In this document: positions 1 through 40,332 of the stretch, piece after piece
Layout: each line of letters opens with the position of its first letter
Position numbering within the stretch: position 1 is the stretch's first letter
Assembly: GCA_965263045.1 (NCBI GenBank)
Contig: CBDHGK010000041.1
Coordinates: 4,346,408 to 4,410,407 of the forward strand
Source: Terriglobia bacterium
GTDB taxonomy: Bacteria; Acidobacteriota; Terriglobia; 20CM-2-55-15
DNA: 64,000 nucleotides
Direction of reading: 5' to 3'
Made by a program: the position numbers and the translations under genes
Notes under the pieces: model-generated
Database searches by the model: none
The model's input: only the letters and a program-made list of their open reading frames with translations
What the model was told of the DNA's origin: nothing

Positions 1-41
1 CCAAGCACGATCGGTGTCTTCAGTTGCTCTTGAAGTGACAC
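1..41 (-). CDS. GntR-family regulator, N-terminal fragment (gene continues upstream of the window)
   Basis: The reverse complement of 1..41 encodes VSLQEQLKTPIVLG, identical to the N-terminus of the GntR ORF at 36612..37307. Confidence 0.3.
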   Translation of the reverse strand, partial: MSLQEQLKTPIVL

Positions 42-220
42 CTCACTCGTCTTCGAAGCCAGATCCTCTTAAGTGATCGCTCTCAGCGTCGGCCTGTTCC
101 ACCCGACTGTCATTTTCCAGGCGTTCCGGCAGAATCTCGACCCGTTTGTGACAGTTGAAAAACTGCGACAGTCGGGCTTCTGGCCCCGACCGCCAAACCC
201 TAGAGTGCAGGGGTGAGGTG

Positions 221-1924
221 ATGGACATGACGGATCGATCAATTTCCTGGGATCGTGCCATTGGGATCAGCCGGGTTCTCCCTATATATCAACGAAGCCT
301 GCTCTCCATACTGGTTTTCGGAGTATTGCTTTCGGGATGCCTGACAGCGCGAACGAGGCAGAGCGATCCGCCTGCTGCCGCGGTATTCAATTTCGAGCAG
401 TACGAGGTCGCCATCGGCGCCGCGAATCGACAGACCGTTCTAACGGGGTTCCTTTTCGGTGGCGCCGTGGCCGAACTTGCCGTGGTGACCACCGACGAGA
501 GCGAGGACCGCCGCGTGCGCATCTACGCGTTCGGCGACGGCGCCTGGATGCTCAGACTCGAGGGAACGCTCGGTCCCGATGTGCTGTTCGTCGATGTGGC
601 CAACATCGGCGGACGCGACCGGCTGGTCACCTACGAGCCCGGCCGTCTGAACTGGTTCGATCCCGAATCGGCGACGGAACGTGCGCTGGTAGCGGTGACT
701 TCCAACTTCAATCCGCCTCGCAAAGGCGAAATCCCGCATGTAGACATCACTCGGGACGTAAACGACGACGACCGCGACGACCTGGTCGTGCCGGACGTCG
801 ATGGCTTTTGGGTGTTCATCCAGATGAGCGCCGGCGCGTTCGCCGACCCAGTGAAGATCGGCCCCCCCACCGACATGAGTGGGATCTACGGGTCCGACGG
901 ATATCGGTACGACCCCTGGTCTCAGAGCCGTGTCCACGAGCTGGACTACAACCACGATGGTCGCAGCGACCTGGTGTTCTGGAACGAGAACCACTTCGAG
1001 GTGCACACCCAAGACGAGCGTGGGCTGTTTGCCCCGGCGGCCAGGACCTTCACTACCGATGTGGCATTCGACTCTGACGGTCTCTCCTCGCTCGCCACCG
1101 GAGACATGACAGGAAGGGTGCTGCACTCGTTGGCCGACTTGAACGGGGACGGCGTCGGGGATCTCGTAGTTCACTCGCTGGAGGGCAGGAGCATTTCCAG
1201 CAAGCATTCCACCTATGAGGTGCATTTCGGCACACCCACAGCCGATGACGGCACCGTGTTCGCACAGGGCGTCGACATCGCGTTCCAGTCGGACGACAGA
1301 ATTCAGCTCGGGATGGAACCCCACGACTTCGATCGAGACGGCCAGGTGGAGCTGATGATCACAACCATCCACGTCAGGTTCCTCGAAAACAGTCTCTGGA
1401 AGAGAATCAAGGGTTTCATGGGTGATGACATCTGGCTGGATCTCGAGTTCTACCGAATGGAAAAAGGTCGCTACCCCGACACACCCAACACCACCCGCAG
1501 AATCGCGTTAGACGGTGTGCCCAGCCATCGTGAGCCGGGGTGGGTAACCCTGGACCTCGTGCTTCGAGGGGCGACGCACGAGAGCCGGAACACTCAAAAG
1601 AGTTGGCCGCGTGCGTTCAACACGACGTTGCGCATCGGGGATGTGACCGGCGACGGCCGCTCAGACCTGCTCATCGCGGATCACCCTCGGATCATGAACG
1701 CCAGTGTCGGCGTGGGGGGGCCGGGCCTGTTCGCCCCGCGGCATCAGGAGGTGGCCCTCGACATCCCCAACGACGAGGAATACACCTGGCTGGTGGACCT
1801 CAACCAGGACGGCAAACAGGACATCCTCATGCATCGCCCGTTCACTCTAAGAGATGCTCACGGAGCCCGGAGACTGCCGCCCGGAACCGAGCCGCATCGG
1901 GTGACGATGCTGATCGCCCGATGA
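221..1924 (+). CDS. FG-GAP/VCBS-repeat beta-propeller lipoprotein
   Basis: Lipobox LLSGC follows a hydrophobic stretch. At least six D-x-N/D-x-D-G-x-x-D calcium-binding-like repeats are present (DVNDDDRDDLVV, DYNHDGRSDLVF, DLNGDGVGDLVV, DFDRDGQVEL, DVTGDGRSDLLI, DLNQDGKQDIL). The SD motif GGGGTGAGG precedes the ATG at 221. Confidence 0.75.
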   Translation: MDMTDRSISWDRAIGISRVLPIYQRSLLSILVFGVLLSGCLTARTRQSDPPAAAVFNFEQYEVAIGAANRQTVLTGFLFGGAVAELAVVTTDESEDRRVRIYAFGDGAWMLRLEGTLGPDVLFVDVANIGGRDRLVTYEPGRLNWFDPESATERALVAVTSNFNPPRKGEIPHVDITRDVNDDDRDDLVVPDVDGFWVFIQMSAGAFADPVKIGPPTDMSGIYGSDGYRYDPWSQSRVHELDYNHDGRSDLVFWNENHFEVHTQDERGLFAPAARTFTTDVAFDSDGLSSLATGDMTGRVLHSLADLNGDGVGDLVVHSLEGRSISSKHSTYEVHFGTPTADDGTVFAQGVDIAFQSDDRIQLGMEPHDFDRDGQVELMITTIHVRFLENSLWKRIKGFMGDDIWLDLEFYRMEKGRYPDTPNTTRRIALDGVPSHREPGWVTLDLVLRGATHESRNTQKSWPRAFNTTLRIGDVTGDGRSDLLIADHPRIMNASVGVGGPGLFAPRHQEVALDIPNDEEYTWLVDLNQDGKQDILMHRPFTLRDAHGARRLPPGTEPHRVTMLIAR

Positions 1925-1952
1925 GCAAAATCATAGCGGAGGAACAACGCAC

Positions 1953-2579
1953 ATGATCAAGGCACTCGCTGCAATACTGTTCTCGGTCCTGCTCTGCCTC
2001 GGGTCCGTTGTCGACGGCAGCGCTCAGCGGTCCACGACTCAAGGCTGGGTATTCGGTCTGGAACTCGGAGGAACGGCCATCTCCTTCCAGAACGAGCCGA
2101 GTGACAGAGGAGGACTCGTGGGCGCTCGGGCCGGCTATGGCCTCAACGGGATCGTCACACCGTACCTGGGCATATACGAAGCCGACGTCGACGTCCGGAG
2201 GTTTGATGCCTTCGACAAAGTGACATTTGGCCACATCGACCTCGGGGTGAGGCTGCACTTGGCCAATAGCCGCCGCCGGTGGGTCCCTTATGGCGACCTT
2301 GCCGTTACATTCTGGCCTGTGAGCGACGTTAAGAAGCACCAGGAACGGACCACCACCGACTTCGGGGGAAGGGCGACCTCCAGCCTGGGAGGCGGACTCG
2401 CCATCTACCTGTCTGAGGCGTGGGCCCTCGATGTGAACTTCAAGAGGGGCACGGGAGGGTTCAAAGACATCGAGGTTGACAACATCTCGCGTGGCGGGAC
2501 GAGCGAACATCTGCACACATTCCTCGACATCTGGGCCGAATCGGCTCGGTTCACCATCGGGCTTTCGTGGTGGCCGTAG
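1953..2579 (+). CDS. 8-strand outer-membrane beta-barrel protein (OmpW/OmpX-like)
   Basis: Signal peptide MIKALAAILFSVLLCLGSVVDGSAQ, alternating amphipathic strands, aromatic C-terminus GLSWWP. A GGAGG RBS lies upstream. Confidence 0.65.
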   Translation: MIKALAAILFSVLLCLGSVVDGSAQRSTTQGWVFGLELGGTAISFQNEPSDRGGLVGARAGYGLNGIVTPYLGIYEADVDVRRFDAFDKVTFGHIDLGVRLHLANSRRRWVPYGDLAVTFWPVSDVKKHQERTTTDFGGRATSSLGGGLAIYLSEAWALDVNFKRGTGGFKDIEVDNISRGGTSEHLHTFLDIWAESARFTIGLSWWP

Positions 2580-2916
2580 CCCGAGAGCGGAAGTGGGTCG
2601 CACCGCGAGATGCGAGGGCACCGTTTGGGGGACGGATAGAAGATTCAAAACGCCCAGGCGGCCTGCGGAGCAAGGTCGGGTGAGCCTTTCTGCGGTAGCA
2701 GGGATGATTCTGGTCGGCGTCATCGCCAGCCCGCATTTCTCACGGATCTTCGTCGCGAAGCGTCGGAGGCGCCGTCAGGGCAAGGCGCGCGCCGGGCGGG
2801 CGACGGAGGCGTACCTTGAAGTACGTTGAGGAGCCCGACACAGTGGCAACTGGGCTGAATCGATAATCGATGCGTTGTCTTCATGTGCGTCACCGCTTCG
2901 CGTTTCTCAGCCGGCC

Positions 2917-3183
2917 CTAAAGCTTTTCTTCGATGAGGTCCTTCCACGCCCGGTTCGCCAGCGCCAAGTCCGCATACATGCGCTTCAGCTCGCTCATCTC
3001 AACTTCCATTTCTTTCATTCGCTTCAAATTCGACGCGCTCATGCCTCCGTACTTCGACTTCCACGTGTAATAAGTCGCGTCGCTGATCCCGTGCTTCCGG
3101 CAAATTTCCTTCACGGGTCGACCCGCATCGGCTTCTTTCAGAATTGAGACGATCTGTGTCTCGGTAAACCGTGACTTCTTCAT
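2917..3183 (-). CDS. IS3-family transposase OrfA remnant (orfB lost)
   Basis: The 88-aa HTH protein TETQIVSILKEADAGRPVKEICRKHGISDATYYTWKSKY is typical of IS3/IS911 OrfA. A slippery-like AAGAAAAG sits at its 3' end but no orfB follows. The IS1380 IRL lies 8 bp upstream of the start. Confidence 0.7.
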   Translation of the reverse strand: MKKSRFTETQIVSILKEADAGRPVKEICRKHGISDATYYTWKSKYGGMSASNLKRMKEMEVEMSELKRMYADLALANRAWKDLIEEKL

Positions 3184-3191
3184 GGGGAACT

Positions 3192-4937
3192 CCTAGCCCG
3201 CATAAATCACCAGATGGACCAGAAAAGGCCGCCCTGTTTGGCATAAAGCGTTTGTCGAAGACGTTTTAGCAACCAAACAAAGGCGGCCCTTATGACGACA
3301 GAGTGTAACCAAACGACGTTCGAATTTCACGGACTTAATCAACGAAAAGTGAAGGCTCGATTCGACGGAGGGAAGATCACATCCGACGCGGGTGTCCTGC
3401 TGTTGAGGGAAGTCGAAAAACGAACCGGACTGGTCGGGGGACTTGCCGAATGTTTCGCCGATCATCGGGACCCGCGATTGATCGAGCACACGGTGAAGGA
3501 ATTGATTGGGCAACGGGTGTATGGCCTGTGTCTGGGATATGAAGACCTGAACGATCACGACCAACTACGCACCGATCCGATGCTCGCCGTGGCCATCGAT
3601 AAGGCCGATCCGCTGGGAGGCAACCGGCGGCAAGCCAGCGACCGGGGAAAGGCGCTGGCGGGCAAGTGCACGCTGAATCGGCTGGAGTTGACCGGTGCCG
3701 AAGTGGGGGCGGAGGAACGATACAAGAAAATTGCGATGGATGCCGACCAGATTGACCGCTGGATGGTCGATGCATTCATCGCAGCCTATGAATCGGCGCC
3801 TGAAGAAATCATTCTGGACCTCGATGCCACCGACGATCCGATCCACGGGCAACAGGAGGGACGATTCTTTCATGGCTATTACGGCAACTACTGTTATTTG
3901 CCGTTGTATATCTTCTCGGGTGAGCATCTGCTGTGCGCCCGATTGCGACGCTCCAACATCGATGGCGCGGCCGGATCGGTTGAGGAGCTGACCCGCATCA
4001 TCGGACAGATCCGGAAGAGCTGGCCGGATGTGTCGATCATCGTCCGTGGCGACTCGGGTTTTTGCAGAGATGATTTATTGACCTGGTGTGAATCCCATCA
4101 GGTGGATTACGTGGTGGGATTGGCCAAGAACGAGCGACTCCAGGAGGTCATCGCTGAATCCATGGCTCAGGCGAAATCGGAGTTTGAATCCACCGGTAAA
4201 TCGGCACGGATATTTAAGGACTTCCGCTATCGCACACGAGACAGTTGGAGCCAGCAACGGCGCGTCGTGGGCAAGGCCGAGGTTCTGGCCAAGGGCGCCA
4301 ATCCCCGATTCATCGTCACCTCCCTCACACCGCAACGTTGGGAGGCCCGTGCGCTATATGAAGATCTCTACTGTGCGCGCGGCGACATGGAGAACCGGAT
4401 CAAAGAGCAACAACTGGATCTGTTTGCCGACCGCACCAGCGCGGCCACCATGCGCGCCAATCAACTCCGACTGTATCTGTCTTCGGCCGCCTACATGATC
4501 ATGCAGGCCCTGCGTCGACTCGGGCTCCAGGGCACCGAACTGGCGCGCGCTCAATGCGGCACGATCCGGCTGAAGCTGCTCAAGATCGGTGCCCGAATCC
4601 GGTTCACGGTCCGAAACGTCTGGGTGTCGATGGCTGAAGCCTGTCCTTACGCCGAGGTCTATGCCGCCGTTGTCCGCAACCTACAAACAATGCCACTGCG
4701 ATGCTGACACCGACGCTGCGGCTTCGTCCCTGAAATCGATTCGCTTACCCAGTCCGAGCCGAGGTGTGTCTGATCGCGATCGTCAACGCTCTATTGAGCA
4801 CGAAAATCCGCTTCTCACATCGCCAAAAACTCGTCAATTCACCCTGAGACGCTCCCCCCACACCATCTCGCGCCCACCCAGGGTTCTTTTACGCAAAATC
4901 GCAATCACGCGTCGATTGGTGATCTATGCGGGCTAGG
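3192..4937 (+). mobile_element. IS1380-family element (IRL CCTAGCCCGCATAAATCACC / IRR GGTGATCTATGCGGGCTAGG); its last base is displaced to 6484 by a nested IS5-like insertion
   Basis: 20-bp terminal inverted repeats with one mismatch, starting CCTAG as in ISEcp1-type ends. They bracket a 471-aa DDE transposase. Confidence 0.8.
3292..4707 (+). CDS. IS1380-family DDE transposase
   Basis: Carries ITSDAGVLLLREVEK and LDLDATDDPIHGQQEGRFFHGYYGNYCYLPL motifs, which match the IS1380 (ISEcp1-like) signature. Confidence 0.8.
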   Translation: MTTECNQTTFEFHGLNQRKVKARFDGGKITSDAGVLLLREVEKRTGLVGGLAECFADHRDPRLIEHTVKELIGQRVYGLCLGYEDLNDHDQLRTDPMLAVAIDKADPLGGNRRQASDRGKALAGKCTLNRLELTGAEVGAEERYKKIAMDADQIDRWMVDAFIAAYESAPEEIILDLDATDDPIHGQQEGRFFHGYYGNYCYLPLYIFSGEHLLCARLRRSNIDGAAGSVEELTRIIGQIRKSWPDVSIIVRGDSGFCRDDLLTWCESHQVDYVVGLAKNERLQEVIAESMAQAKSEFESTGKSARIFKDFRYRTRDSWSQQRRVVGKAEVLAKGANPRFIVTSLTPQRWEARALYEDLYCARGDMENRIKEQQLDLFADRTSAATMRANQLRLYLSSAAYMIMQALRRLGLQGTELARAQCGTIRLKLLKIGARIRFTVRNVWVSMAEACPYAEVYAAVVRNLQTMPLRC

Positions 4938-6479
4938 AGTCTGCGCGGCAGAGGCTGAATAACTCGGATTTGTGACGATTCGAGAGCGTCTTTGTAGGAG
5001 AGCCGCCCGATTTTCCCAACATGGGCAGCTCCGAGCTGTGGGGACTCGATCCGTTGGTCCTGTGGAGAGCGTTATGGGTCCCGGTGATGCGGATTAAGCC
5101 CATTCGATCTTCCCGTTCATCCGTCGTAAGTTCACTGCCAGAGCCACCAGGCTCCATTCACAGGTGACGTTGTCCAAGCCTCGCAAACTGAACTGTCGGA
5201 ATCCCAGCACCGACTTGATCCACCCGAACGGCGGCTCACCGATGTGCTTTCTGGCCCGGTAGCGATCACGCCCCGTCTGGCTTTTCATCTTTCGGACCAT
5301 GCGGCCCAGGGCCGTGCTTTCGGGTTGGAGTGGGGCCGTGGCGAGATCTTTCTCACGACCCATCGGAACGTACCCATCTATTTGACGTTGTTCCAGCATT
5401 CGCAGATTCGACTCGGATCGGTATCCAGCATCCGCGAGCACCCGGTCTGGACGCTCCGACAGATTCGTGTTCAACTCATCCAGAGTCGGTCCCAACTGCC
5501 CGGTATCTGAAGCATTGTTGCTCACCGTTGTGGCGACGATGATTCGGGCCTCCGCGTCCACGACCGCCTGCGCGTTGTAGCATTGTTGGAACCCGTCGGC
5601 CGAGGTCTTCATGATCCGGCTTTCCGGGTCGGTGAAATTGTCTTGGGCCTTCCCCTTGGGTTCACCCCTCGGGCGTTTGAATGGTTTGCCCTTCTTTCCG
5701 CTTCCCGGTTTGTCGTCTCCAGGCTTCCTTTCCGCTTCCTGGTCTGCCGCCATCTGACGTTCTTCGAGTCGCTTCATCGCCGTCTGGATTGTGGCCAGCC
5801 GCTTCGTGCGGGTCGCCAACCCGTCGGGCAGTTCGTCACCGCGCCGGTCCTTGCCGTAACGTTGGTCTTCTTCCTCATCGGTCGCCGTGGCCCGGTTCAA
5901 CAGATCCCGAATCTGTTCGCCCAATTCGGTCTCCTGCTTTCTCATGCGTTCATAGCTCATCGCTTTGCGTTTGCTCGCATTGGCTCGCATCTTCGTCCCG
6001 TCCACCGCCACCGTTCCCATCTTCACCAGCCCGGCTTCCCGCCCCATCCTCACCACTTGCACAAATAAGTTCCCGAACTCTTCAAGATGCAGTTTTCGAA
6101 AATCCGAGATCGTTCGGTGCGCGGGAAAGTTCTCCGCTCCCAACATCCGGAACGCCACATCTTCGGTCATCTTCGCTGCAATCTTCCGTGACGAAAACAC
6201 TCCCGTCGCGTACCCGTAGATCATCACCTTCACCATCATCCGCGGATCGAAGGCCTGATTGCCCGGCCCGTCCGTTCCATACCTCTGTTCGAACGCGCTC
6301 AAATCCATCGCATCCACGGCGTCCGATATGAAGTACGACAGGTGATCTTCAGCCAGCCAATCTCTCAATGATGGAGGCATCAGCAGGCTCTGTTCTGGAA
6401 TATACGTTCGGTAAGTTCGTGGCATGTCCTATCTTCGATCCTTTTCTGCCCATTTCTGGTCCTTCTGCCGCGCAGACTC
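4937..6479 (-). mobile_element. IS5/IS1182-like element, copy 1 (15-bp IRs GAGTCTGCGCGGCAG; 4-bp CTAG target duplication at 4933-4936 and 6480-6483)
   Basis: Perfect terminal IRs flanked by CTAG on both sides. Identical to copy 2 at 58964..60506 in inverted orientation. Inserted into the CTAG of the IS1380 IRR. Confidence 0.85.
5094..6425 (-). CDS. IS1182/IS5-family DDE transposase
   Basis: 443 aa. The N-terminal motifs PRMMVKVMIYGYATGVFSSRKIAAKMTEDVAFRMLGAENFPAHRTISDFRK and the DAGY-type DDE region match IS1182-family transposases. Identical to 59018..60349. Confidence 0.8.
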   Translation of the reverse strand: MPRTYRTYIPEQSLLMPPSLRDWLAEDHLSYFISDAVDAMDLSAFEQRYGTDGPGNQAFDPRMMVKVMIYGYATGVFSSRKIAAKMTEDVAFRMLGAENFPAHRTISDFRKLHLEEFGNLFVQVVRMGREAGLVKMGTVAVDGTKMRANASKRKAMSYERMRKQETELGEQIRDLLNRATATDEEEDQRYGKDRRGDELPDGLATRTKRLATIQTAMKRLEERQMAADQEAERKPGDDKPGSGKKGKPFKRPRGEPKGKAQDNFTDPESRIMKTSADGFQQCYNAQAVVDAEARIIVATTVSNNASDTGQLGPTLDELNTNLSERPDRVLADAGYRSESNLRMLEQRQIDGYVPMGREKDLATAPLQPESTALGRMVRKMKSQTGRDRYRARKHIGEPPFGWIKSVLGFRQFSLRGLDNVTCEWSLVALAVNLRRMNGKIEWA

Positions 6480-6522
6480 CTAGGTTCATATTGCCAGAAA
6501 GCTCCAATTACGAAATGTCTCT

Positions 6523-6900
6523 GTGATGGGGAAGCTTACGAGATCATCGGCTCACTGGGTATTGGCGGGACGGGTGAGGCCTGCCAGGCCACCGCCACGA
6601 ACCAGAATCGTCAACTTGCAATCAAGGTGCTTTCCGCGGAGTCCACCAGTGACATTGAATGTCTGGTCCGTTTTGAGCGCGAAGCCAAGACCCTGGCATC
6701 GCTCAGCTACCTAACATCGCATCGATACACGGTTTTGAGAAGTCCGCCGACGCTCACACCCTCGTTGTGGAGCGAGTCGCGGGACAGACCCTCGCCGACC
6801 GTAATTCCCAAGAGCCGATTCCCGTTGATGAAGCCCTACCGATAGCCGAACGGATCGCCGATGGGTCGCTTTTGCTTCCGATCGTGCAGAATACCTCGAG
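6523..6900 (+). pseudogene. Ser/Thr protein kinase N-lobe fragment, frameshifted and 3' truncated
   Basis: Translates to YEIIGSLGIGGTGEACQA...LAIKVL...RFEREAKTLASLS, then after a +2 frame shift HPNIASIHGFEKSADAHTLVVERVAGQTLADR...EALPIAERIADG. This covers the Gly-rich loop, VAIK lysine and HPNI motifs of Hanks-type kinases. Only about 120 codons remain. Confidence 0.6.
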
Positions 6901-6945
6901 CTATATGTAGAATTAGATTCGATGAACTGAAGGGTGAACGAAACT

Positions 6946-8565
6946 ATGGCCAGAAAAGAACGCGTTTGTGTTATCGGAGCGGGCCTGTCGGGCCTCATTG
7001 CACTGAAGGAGTTGCTTGAGAAAGGACATGACGTCACTTGCTATGAAAGGGAACTTCGCGAGGGGGGAGTCTTTAACTTTCCAGCGGGTGTGGCTTACGA
7101 CACAATGCGTCTTACCGTCTCGCAGCACTTCATGTGCTTCACTCCGATGCCCGCGCCCCCGCAGGAAAAGCGAGAGCTCTGGACGCGGACACGGTACGCC
7201 CAGTATTTGCAGTCCTTCGCAGAAAAATTTGACCTTTATAGATACATTCAATTTAGTACCGAGGTAGAGGGAATCGAACTCTGTCAGGAAGGCCAGGTCC
7301 GGGTTACTTGTCGTCATAACGCCGAGAGTCGCGACCGGAAGTTTGACGCAGTCGCGATCTGTCAGGGTGCGTTTCGCGCAGACGGTCCGCGAACGCCAAA
7401 CGTCGATGGTCTGGATGACTTTCCTGGAACAGTGGTTCACAGCGGAACTTACAACGACCCGGTGTCCTTTAAGAGTATGCGCGTATTGTGCGTGGGAATG
7501 GGCGAAACGGCCGCAGATATTACCCTGCAGATTTCTGAAGTAGCGGCGAGCTGCACACTAAGTATGCGGTCCTTTCCCGAAATAATAAAAAGATACCGGG
7601 GTCCTGGCCAACGCACCACCGACGTCGACTCTACGCGACTCTTTCACTGGATGTCGCTGGAACAGCGCAGCGATTTCTACGCCTTCAAACGGAAGTTCAG
7701 GGATACGAGGAAGCTTAGCGATCACGATCGGTTGGTTTACGAATGGAATCGAAAATCAGGGGGACGTCGGTCCCTCCAAAAAAACGACGATTTTGTAGAC
7801 AACGTCATCAATGGACGAATTCAGGTGCTTGCTCCGTCCGAGCTCAGATCTATTGAAGGCGATATGGTGATCTTTGATGACCACTCAAGATTGGAAGTGG
7901 ACGCGATCGTATTCTGCACAGGATACGAAGAGAGCTCCATTCCCAACAAGTGGATCAAGGATGTTGAGATCTCTGATGTGCGTCAGTTGTACAAGCATGC
8001 ATTCGATACAGACCTGGGAAGGCAGGTTGCTTTTTTTGGTTGGGCACGACCTCGGCAGGGAGGGTTCCCGGTACTCTCTGAATTGTTAGCCAGGTATTTC
8101 GCACTACTGTGCAGCGGAGAGCGCGAGCTGCCTGCGACAAGCGAAATGAAACGTGTCATTGCTGAAGATTGTGCGCGCGAGGAGGAGTGGTTCGCCAATT
8201 CGAAATCGACGCGTACTCTAGTTCACTACACACGCTATTCAGATGATCTTGCCGAACTGGTTGGATGCCTTCCCAACCTGGAAGAATATCTGAATGATCC
8301 AGAGCTGCTCACACACCTGATTTGTTCGTCAAACATTGGACTGAGCTATCGGTTACAGGGCCCAGACGCCTTCCCGAAGATAGCTAGGGACTCTTGCGTG
8401 TCGGCGCCCATCGCTGATCCGTATGCAGCTATCGATCAGTTCTTGGACTTCTCGCTCAGACAGAGACTGAATCTGGACCTGGCAAAGCGGGTCGCTGAGA
8501 TCATTCGCACATATCTGACCACACACACGACGGACATGCCTTCGACGGAAACCTGGGGAAGCTGA
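6946..8565 (+). CDS. Flavin-containing monooxygenase (class B flavoprotein monooxygenase)
   Basis: VCVIGAGLSGL FAD-binding GxGxxG motif, GTVVHSGTYND FMO motif, and a second dinucleotide fold at VLCVGMGETAADI. GC appears visibly lower than the flanking DNA. Confidence 0.8.
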   Translation: MARKERVCVIGAGLSGLIALKELLEKGHDVTCYERELREGGVFNFPAGVAYDTMRLTVSQHFMCFTPMPAPPQEKRELWTRTRYAQYLQSFAEKFDLYRYIQFSTEVEGIELCQEGQVRVTCRHNAESRDRKFDAVAICQGAFRADGPRTPNVDGLDDFPGTVVHSGTYNDPVSFKSMRVLCVGMGETAADITLQISEVAASCTLSMRSFPEIIKRYRGPGQRTTDVDSTRLFHWMSLEQRSDFYAFKRKFRDTRKLSDHDRLVYEWNRKSGGRRSLQKNDDFVDNVINGRIQVLAPSELRSIEGDMVIFDDHSRLEVDAIVFCTGYEESSIPNKWIKDVEISDVRQLYKHAFDTDLGRQVAFFGWARPRQGGFPVLSELLARYFALLCSGERELPATSEMKRVIAEDCAREEEWFANSKSTRTLVHYTRYSDDLAELVGCLPNLEEYLNDPELLTHLICSSNIGLSYRLQGPDAFPKIARDSCVSAPIADPYAAIDQFLDFSLRQRLNLDLAKRVAEIIRTYLTTHTTDMPSTETWGS

Positions 8566-9140
8566 GACTGGCCGGCCGCATGCCTGCCCGTACCGGATAT
8601 GAGCCTTGCCGCTGCCTATCAGCCGCGCCATCCGGATGAGCGCCGTAGCACCGTTTCCATCTGGGCCCGCACTTCTCACAGGTTGTCTGCTCCAGCGCCG
8701 GATCCATCCGCCAGTGCTCGGTTGCGCTGGGCCAGGCTCCTCGACGTACTGTAGGGTACGCCTCCGTCGCCTGCCCGGCGCGCGCCTTGCCCTGACGGCG
8801 CCTCCGACGCTTCGCGACGAAATCCCGTGAGAAATGCGATTGCGCGACACCGGATAGTCTGACGCGACACAGCTTTCAACACGGGGTGGTGTCGACCCAC
8901 TCTGGTCTCGTGATGGGGAAAGGCTGTCTTACCGGGAAGGCAACCGCTTTCGTGAAGGGTTTGAGTACAGCTGATGTCGCTTGTTTCAGGTCGGGCCGGG
9001 CGAGCAATCGTTTTGGTGGATTCCTTTTCTTTCGAGGTTCTGACATTTGCCGACGGCCTCCTGAACTGTCGCCGGTAACAATGTATCCAGGGTCTCCCCT
9101 TCGGCGTGATTGACGACGCAGACAATCTGGTGTGGCGCTG

Positions 9141-11297: not shown

Positions 11298-11356
11298 ATT
11301 CCTCCGTGGGGAGTACGCGATTAACCAGGCGAACGGGAAGTGAGGAGAGCGGTCTT

Positions 11357-12480: not shown

Positions 12481-12486
12481 AGCAGC

Positions 12487-29852: not shown

Positions 29853-30014
29853 GGATCAGTAACGATAACTCGCCCAGAGTTTACCGATCCGGCAGCAACG
29901 GGTGAGCCTACACTTCGGCGTTTGAACGAAGCCGCTGGCGCGGCGGACGCTGCGCGTGGGCTGACCGAGGGGTGATCGTCAGACTGTAGAGTGTGGGCCT
30001 CAAAGGAGGCCCAC

Positions 30015-32089: not shown

Positions 32090-32520
32090 CAGAGATTCCA
32101 GTTACACACTTTCCAGACGTGCTCGCGCACGCCGCCGCCCACGTGTGTCTTGATCTCAAAAATGCTTCCAAATCGAGCCTCGACCCGCACCGCAGACTCT
32201 CTAAAACTGCTGCTCCGGAACCCACACTCCTCGTCGCCACCCCGCCACTCGCCCTTGTCGAGTCCCGTCCCGTGACAATTTCAACCCGCATTCCCGTACT
32301 TTCTCCATAGCCCACCGCGTCCGCCGCAAACGCCACCGGCTTCCTTCAAACGTCGTTATCGAAAGTGCCCGAAAATCTCGTCCCCACGACGCTTTCTCGC
32401 TCGGCACTTCCGATGAACGCTAAATGTTTGAACGAAGCCGCTGGCGCGGCGGACGCTGCGCGTGGGCTGACCGAGGGGTGATCGTCAGACTGTAGAGTGT
32501 GGGCCTCAAAGGAGGCCCAC

Positions 32521-33417
32521 ATGACTGATTTGCGGAAACGGATGCTGGAAGAACTCCAGCGCCGCAATTTCTCTCCAACAACAATCCGAACCTATCTGCG
32601 AGTCGTTGAAGACTTCGCTCGCTATTTTGGCACGCGCCCCGATCGTCTCAGCCAGCAACACCTGCGGCAGTATCAGTTGCATTTGATCCAGGAGCGAAAG
32701 CTCGCGATCAAGACTGTAGGTCTGCACATTGCCGCGCTGCGATTCTTCTTTGTGAAGACGCTACGGCGTCCATACCTGAAGCTGGATCTCCCGTATCCCA
32801 AGATGCCGAAGCGACTGCCGACTGTTCTGAGCAAAGAGGAGGTCACCCAACTGATCGGCTCCGCAAACAACCTGCTCGATTACACGATGCTGATGACCTT
32901 GTATGCCACTGGAATGCGTCGGGCCGAGTTGATCGGGTTGAAGGTCCAGGACATCGATAGCCAGCGCATGATCATCCACATCCGTCAGGGCAAGCGCAAC
33001 CGGGATCGCGATGTGCCATTGCCGCCAAAGCTGCTGAATACACTACGGGAGTACTGGCTCTGGATGAAGCCTGGGACCTATTTGTTTCCCGGCATGGTCG
33101 ACAACTGGCGTGCCGACAAACCCCTCACGTCCAAGTGCGTGTGGTTGGCGGTACAAAATGCGGCGAAACGTGCCGGAATCAAGAAGCGTGTATCGCCGCA
33201 CACGCTGCGTCACAGCTGGGCCACCCACCTACTGGAGAATGGCACCGATCTGCGCACCATTCAGATGTTGATGGGTCACTCGGACCTGCGAGCCACCAGC
33301 GTCTATCTGCACTTGTCTCGCCGTCATTTGCAGACGGTCGCCAATCCCGTAGAGACCCTGCCGGTTTCCAGGCTCGATACGGTGAAGCGCTCCAGAAAAA
33401 GGAAGCAGAAACAATGA
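32521..33417 (+). CDS. Tyrosine recombinase, copy 2
   Basis: Identical translation to 30015..30911. Confidence 0.8.
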   Translation: MTDLRKRMLEELQRRNFSPTTIRTYLRVVEDFARYFGTRPDRLSQQHLRQYQLHLIQERKLAIKTVGLHIAALRFFFVKTLRRPYLKLDLPYPKMPKRLPTVLSKEEVTQLIGSANNLLDYTMLMTLYATGMRRAELIGLKVQDIDSQRMIIHIRQGKRNRDRDVPLPPKLLNTLREYWLWMKPGTYLFPGMVDNWRADKPLTSKCVWLAVQNAAKRAGIKKRVSPHTLRHSWATHLLENGTDLRTIQMLMGHSDLRATSVYLHLSRRHLQTVANPVETLPVSRLDTVKRSRKRKQKQ

Positions 33418-34595
33418 CGCGGTCCGCCGTGGAGGTGGCCGACATCCTGCGCGCGCGGGGCAACGACTTCATCGACCGTCATCGAAACAGAATCGATTTC
33501 CAGCAGCTGAAGGTGATGCATGCCATCGTGCGTTGCCGAACAGCCGCTCTTGGCGGTCATATCGATGCCTGCCCGCGATGTGGGGGCGAGGGGACCATCT
33601 CCTACAACTCATGCCGTAATCGCCATTGTCCGAAATGCCAGACTCAGGCGCGTCAGCGCTGGATCGCAGCCAGAGAACGTGAACTTCTCGCGACACGATA
33701 CTTCCATGTCGTGTTCACGCTGCCAAAGGAACTACATGCGCTTGTCCTGCAGAATCCGGTTGAACTCTATAACCTGCTGTTCCGCACCGTGGCCGAGACG
33801 CTGCGGGAGGTCGCGAGAAATCCCAAACACCTTGGCGCCGAGATCGGCTTCTTCCTCATCCTGCACACATGGGGACAAAACGTGCTGTTTCATCCTCACC
33901 TCCACTGCGTCGTTCCCGCCGGTGGAATCGCACCGGACCGTTCGCGATGGATTCGGCCGCGCTACCCTTTCTTCCTGCCTGTAAAGGTTCTGGGGAAAAT
34001 ATTCCGGGGAAAGTTCGTTGACGGATTGCGGAAGGCGTTTCGCAGAGAGTGCCTGACCTTCGCGGGACAGATCCAGCAGTTATCCGAACCGAAGAGCTTC
34101 GCGGCTTTCCTGCGACCGTTATTTCGCCAACCTTGGGTCGTCTATGCGAAGCCGGCATTCGGTGGGCCCGAACAGGTATTACGCTATCTCGGACGCTATA
34201 CCCACCGTGTTGCCATCTCCAATCATCGATTGTTGTCCTTCGACGGCGGCTAGGTCACGTTCCGTTGGCGGGATTACGCGCGTGGCAACAAATCAAGAAC
34301 GATGACGGTTTCCGCCGCCGAGTTCATCCGCCGCTTCCTCCTCCACGTGCTGCCGAAAGGTTTTGTCCGCATCCGACATTTCGGTTTCATGGCGAACGCA
34401 CAACGTTCCGCATCCATGGAACTTTGTCATCGTTTGTTAGGAATGGCGTCGACCGATCCTCACGAGGAAGCCCCTGCGAGCGACTCGGCCGGGTTATGTC
34501 CCGTCTGTCAGACCCCGATGAAGGTCATCGAGAGGCTGACCGCTGCGCAGATCGCATGGAGCTTCACTTCCATATGCTTTGCAGATACGTCGTAG
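33414..34595 (+). pseudogene. IS91-family transposase, copy 2, with in-frame TAG nonsense at 34251..34253
   Basis: Comparison with copy 1 shows a single CAG-to-TAG change. The downstream ORF 34302..34595 is the same-frame remainder. Confidence 0.8.
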
Positions 34596-35233
34596 CAGAG
34601 ATTCCAGTTACACACTTTCCAGACGTGCTCGCGCACGCCGCCGCCCACGTGTGTCTTGATCTCAAAAATGCTTCCAAATCGAGCCTCGACCCGCACCGCA
34701 GACTCTCTAAAACTGCTGCTCCGGAACCCACACTCCTCGTCGCCACCCCGCCACTCGCCCTTGTCGAGTCCCGTCCCGTGACAATTTCAACCCGCATTCC
34801 CGTACTTTCTCCATAGCCCACCGCGTCCGCCGCAAACGCCACCGGCTTCCTTCAAACGTCGTTATCGAAAGTGCCCGAAAATCTCGTCCCCACGACGCTT
34901 TCTCGCTCGGCACTTCCGATGAACGCTAAATGTTTGTCGAGAGTTTACCTTCTGATTGCGTCTAACCCCCTCCTCTAGTATCTTTTGTCGAGTTTCTCAC
35001 GGTTCTTTCAGCGACACATTTTCAACATGAATCCGGCACCAAACTCGGCCACTACGAGATTCTGTCTATGCGCGATAACGGCAATGGGTCCAGTGTGGCC
35101 GTAAAAGGTTTGAATGAGGATGGGTCTCCCAAAATCGTACAGGGCTTATCTGCCAATATACGGAGTCCAGGGAGAATGCAATTACGTGGGAGGATTTGGC
35201 ATTCGTGATGAAAAATGGTGACGGTTCCGCGTC

Positions 35234-36685
35234 ATGAATAAAAGCGTCTTGAACAGGTCGAGAATTCGCTGGGATTTTATCATTGGCGGCAGCATGTGTC
35301 TGGGGTATGCGGCGTTGATGCTCTGCCAGACGACCGTCGGCGTTGCGGGACCGGCGATGCTTCTTGATACCGACATCGAACTGACGATAACGGCATTCGG
35401 TGCGATTCTGGGCTGGGGCATGGCGGGTAACCTTTTGGGCAAACTCACGAATGGAGTCCTTGCCGATAAATTCGGAGGGCGCAAGATATTTGTTCTGGCT
35501 ATCTGCGTTGCCGCCATCGCCATCTGCTCGTTTGGGATGGTTTCAGAAAGGAGCAGCTTTTTTCTGTTTTATTTCCTCACCCTTTTTGCCAAATCTGCTG
35601 GTTGGCCGGCCATGGCCAATCTCATCAAGGTGTGGTTCGCGAAGCAGAAGCACGGGCGAATGTGGGGAATTATTTCCACGAGTTCCCGCGCGAGCGCCGT
35701 GGGAGCTACGCTTCTTCTCAGCAGTCTGTTGCTCATCGTGTCGTGGAGAGGGCTATTTTTTGTGGCTGCTGCTATCACGGCTATCGTTGTCGCAGTGCTT
35801 GCTAAGCTGCTTAAGGGCGCCCCGTCAGAGCTTATCTTGTCGCTTCCCGACAACTCGAAGACCGGGAGACCAATGTCAGGTCGGACACAGGTTCATCCTT
35901 TGGACGAACTGAAAACCTTCGAAGCATTGGCTGTCTTTTTTAAGAGTCCGCGCTTTTGGTTGATCAGCATCAGTCTGATGGGCTTGGCAGTTTTGTTTGA
36001 ATTTCAAGTCTTTATTCCCATCTATCTCAGTGAGTCATTCGGTTTATCGCCCGCTCAGGCCGGCACAGCATCGTCCATTTTCCCACTAGGTTGTCTGATC
36101 GGAGTTTTCGCTGGAGGATTTGTCTATGACAAGCTCTCGAAAAAGGCGTTGACTGCTACTTTGGGCGGCATGTCGGGTTTGGGTTTGCTGTGTCTTACGT
36201 TCCTATTGATGCTTTCCAATATCGACTTGAATACGCGATTGGAACTTATGCTCACCATTGGCACGATTTTCGTATTCGGCTGTGCAATCTCACCGGCCTA
36301 TTATTTGCCAATGAGCGTGTTTTCAATAAACTTTGGCGGCAGGCATTGCGGCCTATTAATCGGACTCATCGATGCAATCGGATATACCGGCGCGATGGTG
36401 TTTGATTTTGTGGGAGGTTCGGTCGCTGACCAGCAGGGGGGATGGCAGATTTTCCTGACTATTCTCGTCCTTGTCTCCTTGACGGTGACGGTTACCATGA
36501 CGCTATTTCTGTATCTAGGAGTCTGTCGGGAATTGGCTCCCTCGAACCAAGAATCAACAACTTACGAGGCATCCTTGGTCTGTAAGTTATTGATTCTTGG
36601 TTGCAGAATTCTTATTCCCGACAGGCTCCTAGATTTTCGCCATTCGTTACCACTACGGAAATACAATTTGGAATTTCAAGTATGA
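35234..36685 (+). CDS. MFS transporter
   Basis: 483 aa with 12 predicted TM segments and an MFS-like loop (GKLTNGVLADKFGGRK). AT-richer than the flanks. The 3' tail overlaps the convergent GntR gene and may be read-through. Confidence 0.65.
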   Translation: MNKSVLNRSRIRWDFIIGGSMCLGYAALMLCQTTVGVAGPAMLLDTDIELTITAFGAILGWGMAGNLLGKLTNGVLADKFGGRKIFVLAICVAAIAICSFGMVSERSSFFLFYFLTLFAKSAGWPAMANLIKVWFAKQKHGRMWGIISTSSRASAVGATLLLSSLLLIVSWRGLFFVAAAITAIVVAVLAKLLKGAPSELILSLPDNSKTGRPMSGRTQVHPLDELKTFEALAVFFKSPRFWLISISLMGLAVLFEFQVFIPIYLSESFGLSPAQAGTASSIFPLGCLIGVFAGGFVYDKLSKKALTATLGGMSGLGLLCLTFLLMLSNIDLNTRLELMLTIGTIFVFGCAISPAYYLPMSVFSINFGGRHCGLLIGLIDAIGYTGAMVFDFVGGSVADQQGGWQIFLTILVLVSLTVTVTMTLFLYLGVCRELAPSNQESTTYEASLVCKLLILGCRILIPDRLLDFRHSLPLRKYNLEFQV

Positions 36686-37307
36686 GCACTCGAAAAAGTA
36701 CTGAAGGAACGCGGGTCCCGTGAAGCAGGCCGGACACGGAGCTCGCATGCAACAGGACGACGTGCGGCACGTCCGGCGTGAGGGCGGCACGCACCTCTTC
36801 TGCGTGATCGTAAAGCGCCACGGGTAGTGCCCCGGTGAGGAGGTTCCGCCGTCGGCAATCCCCGACCCCAAAGCCGACCACCGGCATGGAGATCGCGATC
36901 CGGATTTCGTCGATCAGGATCGCGCGCAGGTCGACATCGGGTTCGATCACAGCGGCCCGGTCCGGGGGCTGAACCGAAAGCCAGTGGCCGATGCGGGCCT
37001 CGATTTCGTCGAGCGGATTGCCGCGGTCCCGCGCCACCAGGAGAAGCGTTGAGATGAGGTGGTCGAGTTCCAACTTGGGACAGGAGATGACGTCGGGATC
37101 CCGATTCCGGACATGGAACCCGGAGCCCTGGCGCCGTTCGACCCAGCCCGCGTCGGCCAGCCCGCGGTAGGCTGCCCGCACGGTGTTCGGGTGTATCCCG
37201 AAACGCCGCCCGATCTCAAACGTAGTGGGCAGTCGTTCGCCGGGAGGAAGATCCGCACTCACGATCCCAAGCACGATCGGTGTCTTCAGTTGCTCTTGAA
37301 GTGACAC
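36612..37307 (-). CDS. GntR-family transcriptional regulator (GTG start)
   Basis: N-terminal winged HTH (LPTTFEIGRRFGIHPNTVRAAYRGLADAGWVERRQGSGFHV) with a ~150-aa C-terminal effector domain. Divergent from the FG-GAP gene. Its first 41 nt lie inside the duplicated segment. Confidence 0.7.
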   Translation of the reverse strand: MSLQEQLKTPIVLGIVSADLPPGERLPTTFEIGRRFGIHPNTVRAAYRGLADAGWVERRQGSGFHVRNRDPDVISCPKLELDHLISTLLLVARDRGNPLDEIEARIGHWLSVQPPDRAAVIEPDVDLRAILIDEIRIAISMPVVGFGVGDCRRRNLLTGALPVALYDHAEEVRAALTPDVPHVVLLHASSVSGLLHGTRVPSVLFRVLILEIPNCISVVVTNGENLGACRE

Positions 37308-37486
37308 CTCACTCGTCTTCGAAGCCAGATCCTCTTAAGTGATCGCTCTCAGCGTCGGCCTGTTCCACCCGACTGTCATTTTCCAGGCGTTCCGGCAGAA
37401 TCTCGACCCGTTTGTGACAGTTGAAAAACTGCGACAGTCGGGCTTCTGGCCCCGACCGCCAAACCCTAGAGTGCAGGGGTGAGGTG
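37308..37486. promoter_or_regulatory. Divergent GntR / FG-GAP intergenic region with candidate operator palindromes
   Basis: GTCGGGcttctggcCCCGAC (6-bp inverted repeat, 8-nt spacer) and CAGTTgaaaAACTG, plus direct repeats TGTGACAG / TGCGACAG. The same sequence is present in copy 1 at 42..220. Confidence 0.3.
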
Positions 37487-39190
37487 ATGGACATGACGGA
37501 TCGATCAATTTCCTGGGATCGTGCCATTGGGATCAGCCGGGTTCTCCCTATATATCAACGAAGCCTGCTCTCCATACTGGTTTTCGGAGTATTGCTTTCG
37601 GGATGCCTGACAGCGCGAACGAGGCAGAGCGATCCGCCTGCTGCCGCGGTATTCAATTTCGAGCAGTACGAGGTCGCCATCGGCGCCGCGAATCGACAGA
37701 CCGTTCTAACGGGGTTCCTTTTCGGTGGCGCCGTGGCCGAACTTGCCGTGGTGACCACCGACGAGAGCGAGGACCGCCGCGTGCGCATCTACGCGTTCGG
37801 CGACGGCGCCTGGATGCTCAGACTCGAGGGAACGCTCGGTCCCGATGTGCTGTTCGTCGATGTGGCCAACATCGGCGGACGCGACCGGCTGGTCACCTAC
37901 GAGCCCGGCCGTCTGAACTGGTTCGATCCCGAATCGGCGACGGAACGTGCGCTGGTAGCGGTGACTTCCAACTTCAATCCGCCTCGCAAAGGCGAAATCC
38001 CGCATGTAGACATCACTCGGGACGTAAACGACGACGACCGCGACGACCTGGTCGTGCCGGACGTCGATGGCTTTTGGGTGTTCATCCAGATGAGCGCCGG
38101 CGCGTTCGCCGACCCAGTGAAGATCGGCCCCCCCACCGACATGAGTGGGATCTACGGGTCCGACGGATATCGGTACGACCCCTGGTCTCAGAGCCGTGTC
38201 CACGAGCTGGACTACAACCACGATGGTCGCAGCGACCTGGTGTTCTGGAACGAGAACCACTTCGAGGTGCACACCCAAGACGAGCGTGGGCTGTTTGCCC
38301 CGGCGGCCAGGACCTTCACTACCGATGTGGCATTCGACTCTGACGGTCTCTCCTCGCTCGCCACCGGAGACATGACAGGAAGGGTGCTGCACTCGTTGGC
38401 CGACTTGAACGGGGACGGCGTCGGGGATCTCGTAGTTCACTCGCTGGAGGGCAGGAGCATTTCCAGCAAGCATTCCACCTATGAGGTGCATTTCGGCACA
38501 CCCACAGCCGATGACGGCACCGTGTTCGCACAGGGCGTCGACATCGCGTTCCAGTCGGACGACAGAATTCAGCTCGGGATGGAACCCCACGACTTCGATC
38601 GAGACGGCCAGGTGGAGCTGATGATCACAACCATCCACGTCAGGTTCCTCGAAAACAGTCTCTGGAAGAGAATCAAGGGTTTCATGGGTGATGACATCTG
38701 GCTGGATCTCGAGTTCTACCGAATGGAAAAAGGTCGCTACCCCGACACACCCAACACCACCCGCAGAATCGCGTTAGACGGTGTGCCCAGCCATCGTGAG
38801 CCGGGGTGGGTAACCCTGGACCTCGTGCTTCGAGGGGCGACGCACGAGAGCCGGAACACTCAAAAGAGTTGGCCGCGTGCGTTCAACACGACGTTGCGCA
38901 TCGGGGATGTGACCGGCGACGGCCGCTCAGACCTGCTCATCGCGGATCACCCTCGGATCATGAACGCCAGTGTCGGCGTGGGGGGGCCGGGCCTGTTCGC
39001 CCCGCGGCATCAGGAGGTGGCCCTCGACATCCCCAACGACGAGGAATACACCTGGCTGGTGGACCTCAACCAGGACGGCAAACAGGACATCCTCATGCAT
39101 CGCCCGTTCACTCTAAGAGATGCTCACGGAGCCCGGAGACTGCCGCCCGGAACCGAGCCGCATCGGGTGACGATGCTGATCGCCCGATGA
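37487..39190 (+). CDS. FG-GAP/VCBS-repeat beta-propeller lipoprotein (copy 2, identical protein)
   Basis: Identical translation to 221..1924. Confidence 0.75.
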   Translation: MDMTDRSISWDRAIGISRVLPIYQRSLLSILVFGVLLSGCLTARTRQSDPPAAAVFNFEQYEVAIGAANRQTVLTGFLFGGAVAELAVVTTDESEDRRVRIYAFGDGAWMLRLEGTLGPDVLFVDVANIGGRDRLVTYEPGRLNWFDPESATERALVAVTSNFNPPRKGEIPHVDITRDVNDDDRDDLVVPDVDGFWVFIQMSAGAFADPVKIGPPTDMSGIYGSDGYRYDPWSQSRVHELDYNHDGRSDLVFWNENHFEVHTQDERGLFAPAARTFTTDVAFDSDGLSSLATGDMTGRVLHSLADLNGDGVGDLVVHSLEGRSISSKHSTYEVHFGTPTADDGTVFAQGVDIAFQSDDRIQLGMEPHDFDRDGQVELMITTIHVRFLENSLWKRIKGFMGDDIWLDLEFYRMEKGRYPDTPNTTRRIALDGVPSHREPGWVTLDLVLRGATHESRNTQKSWPRAFNTTLRIGDVTGDGRSDLLIADHPRIMNASVGVGGPGLFAPRHQEVALDIPNDEEYTWLVDLNQDGKQDILMHRPFTLRDAHGARRLPPGTEPHRVTMLIAR

Positions 39191-39218
39191 GCAAAATCAT
39201 AGCGGAGGAACAACGCAC

Positions 39219-39845
39219 ATGATCAAGGCACTCGCTGCAATACTGTTCTCGGTCCTGCTCTGCCTCGGGTCCGTTGTCGACGGCAGCGCTCAGCGGTCCA
39301 CGACTCAAGGCTGGGTATTCGGTCTGGAACTCGGAGGAACGGCCATCTCCTTCCAGAACGAGCCGAGTGACAGAGGAGGACTCGTGGGCGCTCGGGCCGG
39401 CTATGGCCTCAACGGGATCGTCACACCGTACCTGGGCATATACGAAGCCGACGTCGACGTCCGGGGGTTTGATGCCTTCGACAAAGTGACATTTGGCCAC
39501 ATCGACCTCGGGGTGAGGCTGCACTTGGCCAATAGCCGCCGCCGGTGGGTCCCTTATGGCGACCTTGCTGTTACATTCTGGCCTGTGAGCGACGTTAAGA
39601 AGCACCAGGAACGGACCACCACCGACTTCGGGGGAAGGGCGACCTCCAGCCTGGGAGGCGGACTCGCCATCTACCTGTCTGAGGCGTGGGCCCTCGATGT
39701 GAACTTCAAGAGAGGCACGGGAGGGTTCAGAGACATCGAGCTTGACAACATCTCGTGTGGCGGGACGAGCGAACATTTGCACACATTCCTCGACATCTGG
39801 GCCGAATCGGCTCGGTTCACCATCGGGCTTTCGTGGTGGCCGTAG
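39219..39845 (+). CDS. 8-strand outer-membrane beta-barrel protein (copy 2; 3 aa substitutions versus copy 1)
   Basis: RRF/RGF, FKDIEVDNISRGG / FRDIELDNISCGG differences, plus synonymous and 3'-UTR SNPs. Confidence 0.65.
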   Translation: MIKALAAILFSVLLCLGSVVDGSAQRSTTQGWVFGLELGGTAISFQNEPSDRGGLVGARAGYGLNGIVTPYLGIYEADVDVRGFDAFDKVTFGHIDLGVRLHLANSRRRWVPYGDLAVTFWPVSDVKKHQERTTTDFGGRATSSLGGGLAIYLSEAWALDVNFKRGTGGFRDIELDNISCGGTSEHLHTFLDIWAESARFTIGLSWWP

Positions 39846-40332
39846 CCCGAGAGCGGAAGTGGGTTGCGCCGCGAGATGCGAGGGCACCGTTTGGGGGACG
39901 GATAGGAGATTCAAAACGCCCAGGCGGCCTGCGGAGCAAGGTCGGGTGAGCCTTTCTGCGGTAGCAGGGATGATTCTGGTCGGCGTCATCGCTAGAATCG
40001 CCTTGTTCTGGTAGTTCCCGTACTTGAGGCACTTGCCTGCACGATCATTCGTCCCGGGCTGAACAAATCACCCTGAGAAACAATACCGTCAAATCGTGCG
40101 AAATGACCTGAAAGCAAAGCCCATATGAATCCCCGTGTACTGGTCAGTTACTCCCTCGTATTGGCGCTGGTGATCGCGTCCCGGACCGCATGTGCGCAGC
40201 CCAGCGCGGGAACTCCGAACGTCAACGAGGCAGGTTCCGATAGTCGGGCGACGACACCATAAAGGAGCTTTTCTTCCTGATTCGGAGGCCGGTAGTCGTC
40301 GATAGCCACAAAGGAACTCTGGAAGCTCCGCT

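Follow-up and report, generated by a model that had tools for sequence, protein, structure and literature searches.

A probable older, partly gene-converted duplication of an FG-GAP/outer-membrane protein operon in a transposon-dense stretch of a Terriglobia chromosome

Dispersed duplicate genes of bacterial chromosomes, such as tufA and tufB of Salmonella or the rRNA operons, are kept similar by RecA-dependent gene conversion. Direct repeats in Salmonella and E. coli undergo unequal recombination and pass through cycles of amplification and deletion. Here, we analyzed a 64,000-nt stretch (termed the window) from the 6.47-Mb chromosome of a Terriglobia bacterium (GenBank assembly GCA_965263045.1, contig CBDHGK010000041.1, positions 4,346,408 to 4,410,407 of the forward strand), which carries two direct copies of a module consisting of the 5' part of a GntR-family regulator gene, a gene for an FG-GAP repeat protein and a gene for an outer-membrane protein (OMP). 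With a probability of about 0.68, we interpret the pair as an older dispersed direct duplication of the FG-GAP lipoprotein/OMP operon, whose core of at least 2.2 kb was later homogenized by gene conversion and whose right end was cut at a miniature inverted-repeat transposable element (MITE).

Similar to tufA/tufB and the rRNA operons, the module is present in two direct copies on one chromosome, which form a substrate for unequal crossover. As in pairs of the tufA/tufB type, an identical tract lies beside a diverged margin, and derived changes are found in both copies. In contrast to these systems, the genes concerned are non-essential genes for surface proteins, they lie in a region dense in insertion sequences (IS), one of the margins is cut by a MITE, and conversion is deduced purely from the pattern of substitutions. 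With respect to duplication and deletion at direct repeats, a repeat of at least 2.7 kb flanks 34.5 kb of sequence, and a contig from another assembly that carries a single module, L001, fits the expected recombinant. Unlike the amplification cycles of Salmonella and E. coli, no tandem-amplified form was observed, and the link between L001 and copy 1 depends on a flank that lies outside the window. The original prediction that the pair renders the intervening segment prone to deletion or amplification gains circumstantial support from L001. The MITE resembles the IS1380 family, as its terminal inverted repeats (TIRs) start with CCCGC and are close to the inverted repeats (IRs) of the co-resident IS1380 element, and as a 4-bp duplication of CTAG is seen at a related MITE locus (L003) and at the intact IS. 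It differs from a typical IS1380 MITE in that the module-adjacent copy is truncated, with its second end lost, and in that the complete copy of the window lacks a clear target duplication. Elements related to the ISEcp1-type and IS91/ISCR systems lie near the module copies as well; a search for the unit structures that define these systems, an IS end plus passenger bounded by a target duplication or a passenger located at the terIS side, was negative.

The two copies and the part in which they differ are as follows.

1 to 2729, forward strand: module copy 1 (derived context), comprising the GntR 5' fragment, the intergenic region between the divergent genes, the FG-GAP and OMP genes and 150 nt downstream; on the left, it is truncated by the edge of the window.
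37267 to 39995, forward strand: module copy 2 in its native context, over the part that the window allows to be compared with copy 1.
2199 to 2727 (partner 39465-39993), forward strand: divergent tail of copy 1, with 11 substitutions (~2.1%), 10 of them transitions.

When positions 1-2726 and 37267-39992 were aligned, exactly 10 substitutions and no gaps were found, at copy-1 positions 2199, 2303, 2447, 2464, 2475, 2490, 2511, 2599, 2602 and 2640. This agrees with the original prediction, which had described the two segments as direct copies of one three-gene module with an identical first ~2 kb (no difference occurs in the first 2198 nt) and about 10 single-nucleotide differences in the last ~500 bp, in the OMP gene and on its 3' side (all 10 fall within 2199-2640). 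A base-by-base reading extends the homology by 3 nt (CAG versus TAG) to 2729/39995 and adds an 11th mismatch at 2727 (C versus T). Past these positions, the flanks of the two copies diverge completely. The copies lie 37 kb apart, and the interval between them holds 34.5 kb of unique genes. Being near-identical, located on the same molecule and followed on the right by different sequence, they form a dispersed direct duplication. Copy 1 starts at the first base of the window, so that its left end merely reflects where the window begins and the repeat measures at least 2.7 kb. The predicted size of 2.7 kb therefore holds as a minimum, while the matching coordinates were right.

All 11 substitutions fall within the last 531 of 2729 nt (chance P = 1.5e-8), with none in the 2198 nt before. 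Comparison of a two-rate with a one-rate model gave a likelihood-ratio statistic of 36 with the best change-point at 2198, and the probability of finding no difference in 2198 nt at the rate of the tail is ~1e-20. A uniform recent duplication was rejected. Ten of the changes are transitions and one is a transversion, and no indels were found. Seven substitutions lie in the OMP gene and the remaining four downstream of its stop codon. Codon analysis of the seven gives four nonsynonymous (R83G, K171R, V175L and R180C) and three synonymous changes, correcting the three nonsynonymous changes counted earlier. Selection on the OMP tail was considered and dropped, as 4 nonsynonymous to 3 synonymous changes (a ratio of nonsynonymous to synonymous rates, dN/dS, of roughly 0.4) are too few to interpret.

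To polarize the changes, sister-lineage loci (L002, L083 and L084), which carry the module at ~90% nucleotide identity, served as outgroups. In the tail, the copies are 2.0% apart and each differs by 6.0-7.4% from the three outgroup loci; in the core, the copies are identical to each other and ~10% from the outgroups. At the 10 sites covered, the derived state lies in copy 1 at three, in copy 2 at five, and is ambiguous at two. The outgroup OMP proteins show the same two-sided polarity at the four variable residues. Derived changes in both copies, together with the transition bias and the lack of indels, show this to be real divergence and not error in one copy. The two copies are each other's nearest relatives, with anything else found at least 6% away, and a tail patched in from the sister lineage was rejected on the same distances (2.0% between the copies versus 6.0-7.4% to the outgroups). 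No donor allele was found in any collection, including a GTDB scan, which was without the source species, and a scan of JGI metagenomes, which returned a single irrelevant fragment at 78%. The simplest account, as far as sequence comparison can tell, would be that paralogues diverged by ~2% and that conversion then homogenized at least 2.2 kb. Of the two ways in which the original prediction had read the pattern, as partial gene conversion or as older divergence left at one end, both find support in 0 of 2198 substitutions against 2.1% in the last 531 nt and in derived states on both sides.

The genes of the module were assigned as follows.

36612 to 37307, reverse strand: full-length GntR-family regulator, divergent from the FG-GAP gene (Pfam GntR, 49.8 bits, cutoff 27).
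227 to 1924, forward strand: FG-GAP repeat protein gene of copy 1 (565 amino acids; Pfam FG-GAP_3 and FG-GAP), identical to copy 2.
37493 to 39190 (alternative start 37421), forward strand: FG-GAP repeat protein gene of copy 2 (Pfam FG-GAP_3, 47.8 bits, cutoff 26.9).
1953 to 2579, forward strand: OMP beta-barrel gene, copy-1 allele with R83, K171, V175 and R180 (Pfam OMP_b-brl; product P0123).
39219 to 39845, forward strand: OMP beta-barrel gene, copy-2 allele with G83, R171, L175 and C180 (Pfam OMP_b-brl); the exact product is also encoded on L001.

Pfam matches to GntR, FG-GAP and OMP_b-brl above their cutoffs bear out the predicted gene content of a GntR 5' end, an FG-GAP lipoprotein and an outer-membrane protein. 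The lipoprotein assignment is probable, since an LSGC lipobox motif follows a hydrophobic stretch. Among solved structures, the sole relative of the FG-GAP protein is an integrin-like propeller lectin, which it matches weakly. The OMP (208 amino acids), a putative 8-strand barrel according to the original prediction, scores 35.1 bits against a Pfam gathering cutoff of 28.7, and no relative was found in the PDB by sequence. In copy 1, only the first ~13 codons of GntR are visible (window 1-41). The form on record for the source chromosome has 220 amino acids and starts at 37274. The exact products of both OMP alleles, the 565-amino-acid FG-GAP protein and the 220-amino-acid GntR protein are all on record for a 6.47-Mb contig, evidently this chromosome.

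The full-length GntR gene is found only beside copy 2, which has a STAS/BON gene on its right. In other Acidobacteriota loci (L041, L042, L062 and L065), GntR likewise lies divergently beside FG-GAP, and the OMP gene follows FG-GAP in L002, L019, L020 and L073. The full GntR beside copy 2 alone and the GntR/FG-GAP adjacency in other loci thus mark copy 2 as the ancestral arrangement. Elsewhere, GntR is truncated after ~16 codons (L002/L083), ~37 codons (L084) and ~47 codons (L001). The left break of L002 was tried as a fixed cassette edge at the window start and rejected, as it is 10-17 nt off and the GntR break points of L084 and L001 differ.

At the right boundary of copy 1, a series of mobile elements follows the module.

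2730 to 2843, forward strand: truncated IS1380-type MITE, which starts with the TIR CCCGCATTTCTCACGG directly after copy 1 and matches 8727-8838 over 112 nt at 90%.
2918 to 3183, reverse strand: remnant of an IS3-family OrfA (88 amino acids; Pfam HTH_Tnp_1, 88 bits), with no orfB and no IS ends.
3197 to 4932, forward strand: intact IS1380-family element (NCBIfam transpos_IS1380, 404 bits) with IRs CCCGCATAAATCACC and CTAG on both sides; its transposase open reading frame (ORF) spans 3292-4707.
4933 to 6483, reverse strand: IS1182-family element with a DDE domain (369 bits, cutoff 270) and perfect 20-nt IRs.
8666 to 8840, reverse strand: MITE of the same family in complete form (175 nt), lying in the opposite orientation to the truncated copy; both of its ends carry the terminus seen at 2730.
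39992 to 39995, forward strand: unoccupied CTAG target site in copy 2; at this point, copy 1 has CCAG followed by the MITE.

At the junction, copy 2 reads ATCGC-TAG-AATC and copy 1 reads ATCGC-CAG-CCCGC, the latter being the start of CCCGCATTTCTCACGG. The MITE TIR CCCGCATTTCTCAC corresponds to the IS1380 IR CCCGCATAAATCAC, and complete copies carry both TIRs. The family comprises elements of ~170-175 nt without an ORF and is represented by three copies over two different Acidobacteriota genomes. In a Bryobacterales metagenome-assembled genome (MAG; locus L003), a complete ~170-nt copy (15970-~16139) is bordered by CTAG left and right. Of the copy at 2730, a single end survives, and it adjoins CCAG; the copy at 8666-8840 shows no such duplication. 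A general literature search found no description of this family. The MITE at 2730 is cut after about 114 nt and joined to the IS3 OrfA remnant. As the homology ends exactly at the MITE insertion site and the MITE itself is cut, the right end of the repeat is secondary and not the breakpoint of the duplication. The original duplicated segment probably extended further to the right. Two other roles for the 112-nt inverted arms were rejected: as ends of a 6.1-kb composite transposon, given that no target duplication surrounds 2730-8840, and as structured RNA, with fold z-scores of +0.2 to -1.9 and no Rfam match in the window.

The original prediction had copy 1 abut an IS3 remnant, an IS1380 and a nested IS5-like element. 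All of these neighbors are present; the direct neighbor, though, is the truncated MITE, and the 'IS5-like' element belongs to the IS1182 family and is not nested in IS1380 but adjoins it at a shared CTAG.

Taken together, the following sequence of events is proposed. A unit made up of the operon, the divergent promoter region and the first GntR codons would have been duplicated within a transposon-dense stretch of the 6.47-Mb chromosome, with copy 1 as the derived copy, and the two copies would have diverged by ~2%. Non-crossover homologous recombination, i.e., gene conversion, may then have rendered the core of at least 2.2 kb identical, leaving the tail diverged. An IS1380-family MITE would have inserted into a CTAG located 147 nt past the stop codon of the OMP gene, and a later IS-associated deletion could have removed the distal third of the MITE together with what followed, joining it to the IS3 remnant. 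Both copies would serve as substrates for unequal homologous recombination, with L001 as a product or as a mirror-image precursor.

L001 is a 13.7-kb contig of the independent assembly ERZ25069191. It contains a single module with the right flank of copy 2 and a different left flank. Compared to window 37163-45706, it shows two substitutions (37168 and 37195) in 8.5 kb, both within the 33 nt at the left edge of the match, and two indel errors, and it carries all 10 copy-2 alleles. Left of the position equivalent to 37163, L001 has a terminator-like hairpin and a gene for a MacB/FtsX permease, a gene absent from the window. This MacB gene (L001 1-2316) is 5'-truncated by ~260 codons where an IS256-type end abuts; the same end is found at window 16288-16602 (100% identical over 315 nt). 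A 593-amino-acid product, evidently of the source chromosome, is an exact sub-sequence of this truncated MacB. To the right of 45706, L001 carries an IS1595 that is absent from the window, which identifies L001 as a different strain and not as a chimera of the same assembly.

The stretch shared by L001 and copy 2 beyond the equivalent of the window edge is relevant here.

37163 to 37266, forward strand: GntR stretch common to L001 and copy 2, which holds both L001 substitutions and would be the left extension of the repeat outside the window.

Most simply, L001 would be a recombinant between the copies, formed either by a 37.3-kb deletion or by the mirror-image integration. If so, the substitutions at 37168 and 37195 would represent copy-1 alleles of a diverged left margin, comparable to the 2% diverged margin on the right, and the full repeat would be ~100 nt longer than seen in the window, ending in GntR codon ~47 beside the truncated MacB.

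Several observations weigh against our interpretation. The left flank of copy 1 lies outside the window, so that its adjacency to MacB and the ~100-nt extension are deduced from L001. The substitution at 37168, which lies 5 nt away from the breakpoint, could stem from an edge effect of the alignment, and L001 itself has 2x coverage with indel errors. Furthermore, neither a target-site duplication nor an IS end marks a clean insertion of copy 1.

The mirror image of the deletion is a Campbell-type integration, in which a 37.3-kb circle (a chromosomal circle, a translocatable unit or a plasmid-like molecule) carrying the module with the full GntR entered a locus composed of MacB, truncated GntR, module and STAS, with L001 as the empty site. 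The A-B-A architecture corresponds to such an event, the structure of L001 is precisely that predicted for the empty site, the truncated MacB of L001 is also present in the source genome, and both a tyrosine recombinase and IS91 copies of the rolling-circle type are encoded within the interval. However, Pfam scans of ORFs of at least 90 amino acids revealed no replication, partition, conjugation or relaxase genes in the interval, which encodes ordinary chromosomal functions and shows no tRNA, no att-like site and no similarity to known plasmids. An origin of the interval as a plasmid or an integrative and conjugative element was rejected on this lack of hallmark genes and of plasmid similarity. 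In addition, the GntR/FG-GAP adjacency looks ancestral, which makes a truncated site of the L001 type derived, and one reciprocal crossover cannot give an identical core with diverged ends, so that conversion would still be needed. We regard this integration as unlikely.

The module is not confined to this chromosome. For the FG-GAP gene, more than 100 relatives were found at 66-84% amino acid and 75-86% nucleotide identity, the similarity being limited to the ORF. The chromosome-scale MAGs that carry them bear the labels Acidobacteriota, Latescibacterota, Poribacteria, Gemmatimonadota, Calditrichota, Nitrosomonas and 'Ca. Multivorans' (at least six phyla), and the gene is often present as 2-4 tandem paralogues (loci L002-L081). 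In the sister lineage, the whole unit of GntR fragment, FG-GAP and OMP is found in an unrelated, stable context with near-same outer limits (~37250 to 39961). At L002 11751-12373, in the closest of the reference MAGs, the OMP gene is split into ORFs of 122 and 86 amino acids (P0125 and P0126), representing either a frameshifted pseudogene or an assembly error. Judged by sequence relatedness, the distribution of the FG-GAP gene suggests horizontal transfer across phyla among co-resident, probably sponge- or coral-associated bacteria. Many of the isolate names of the relatives look like those of sponge or coral symbiont bins, which we presume them to be. A literature search on FG-GAP proteins in sponge symbionts or Poribacteria found nothing relevant.

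These relatives lend some weight to an independent acquisition, according to which a second allele, diverged by ~2%, came from a close relative, landed by MacB and was partly converted by the resident copy. FG-GAP genes occur across many phyla with ORF-confined identity, and in the sister lineage the surroundings of the whole unit are entirely different. Yet the copies are 2.0% apart, with at least 6% to any other sequence found, the donor allele was found in none of the collections, and conversion is still required. This scenario departs from the preferred duplication only in the origin of copy 1, and we consider it rather improbable.

Another possibility is that the pair is an artefact, with two strain haplotypes of one locus chained or a repeat mis-joined, as raised in the original prediction in the form of an assembly collapse or expansion. 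The source is a metagenome-assembled chromosome, strain variants such as L001 exist, and 2% is within the range between strains. On the other side, the right flanks are entirely different and 34.5 kb of unique genes lie between the copies; a genome with two copies, together with one recombinant, is the simplest explanation for the three junction combinations; the substitutions are transition-biased, free of indels and derived in both copies; and both OMP alleles are encoded on one 6.47-Mb contig. Given the different right flanks, the two-sided polarity and the independent contig L001, collapse or expansion is not supported and appears quite improbable.

Copying of the module by a transposon, either by IS1380/ISEcp1-like read-through or by one-ended rolling-circle transposition of IS91, is very improbable: an IS1380-type terminus does lie exactly at the end of copy 1, with an intact IS1380 470 nt away and tandem IS91 copies 2.3 kb left of copy 2, but copy 2 lacks any IS end and its CTAG is intact and unoccupied, no duplicated target site surrounds 2730-8840 or 3197-8840 as it would a composite transposon, the truncated MITE fits insertion followed by deletion, and the module is located beyond the 3' end of the IS91 transposase, presumably the wrong side for mobilization by these copies.

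The duplication thus remains the preferred reading, set in a region rich in mobile elements. Within the interval we found the IS3 OrfA remnant, IS1380, the IS1182-family element, a Mutator/IS256-type IS, an IS110, a second IS1380-like transposase and tandem IS91 units. Right of copy 2, up to 60.5 kb, follow an IS66, two IS630-like elements, a Mutator-type IS, a DUF772/DDE IS and a second IS1182-family copy. The repeats consequently do not bracket the entire IS-rich region, as had been claimed, since IS elements run on to the right of copy 2. In sponge symbionts, transposase-rich genomes with IS66 and IS1380 at recombination regions have been described (PMC11410982).

Further features of the mobile elements were observed. 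The tandem IS91 units span 29920-34936 as two units of 2506 nt with one mismatch between them, each encoding a XerA/integron-integrase-like tyrosine recombinase (306 amino acids) followed by an IS91-family rolling-circle transposase. The two IS1182-family copies (4933-6483 and 58960-60511) form an inverted pair that is 100% identical, and the IS630-like copies (49423-50582 and 57803-58963; 99.7% identical) form a second inverted pair nested within the first; the right-hand copies of both pairs abut with an overlap of 4 nt. Recombination between these nested pairs could invert segments of 52 kb and 7 kb, the former containing module copy 2. The IS630-like element at 49423-50582 is 99.9% identical to L002 2680-3837 of a Terriglobia MAG, though the module shared with that locus is only 90% identical; from sequence identity, this points to a recent exchange of the IS between distinct lineages. 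Finally, ORFs of 369, 323 and 174 amino acids at 12253-14087 and 18461-18985 of the interval have no Pfam or NCBIfam match and are putative genes only.

A broader reading of the cassette would be that it is a discrete and self-contained unit, repeatedly copied to new positions in chromosomes and passed between phyla of symbionts of marine invertebrates through an as yet unrecognized mechanism. It draws on the near-identical boundaries in the sister lineage, the ORF-limited identity across phyla and the frequent tandem arrays, and we regard it as an unlikely proposal. If true, the duplication in the window would be a recent copy event of this unit and not an ordinary segmental duplication. The cross-phylum FG-GAP cassette with its integrin-like propeller is the more promising lead compared to the duplication, combining unusually high nucleotide identity across phyla with no description found in the searchable literature.

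Duplication, conversion, MITE insertion and deletion are all known kinds of events. Taken alone, the duplication therefore represents routine remodelling of an IS-dense genome by duplication, conversion, MITE insertion, IS-associated deletion and repeat recombination. It nonetheless draws attention to 37 kb of sequence that may differ in copy number from strain to strain, and it provides a clean natural case of a conversion tract whose diverged margin can be dated. It also illustrates that the borders of repeats in genomes of this kind may have arisen secondarily and are not to be taken as duplication breakpoints.

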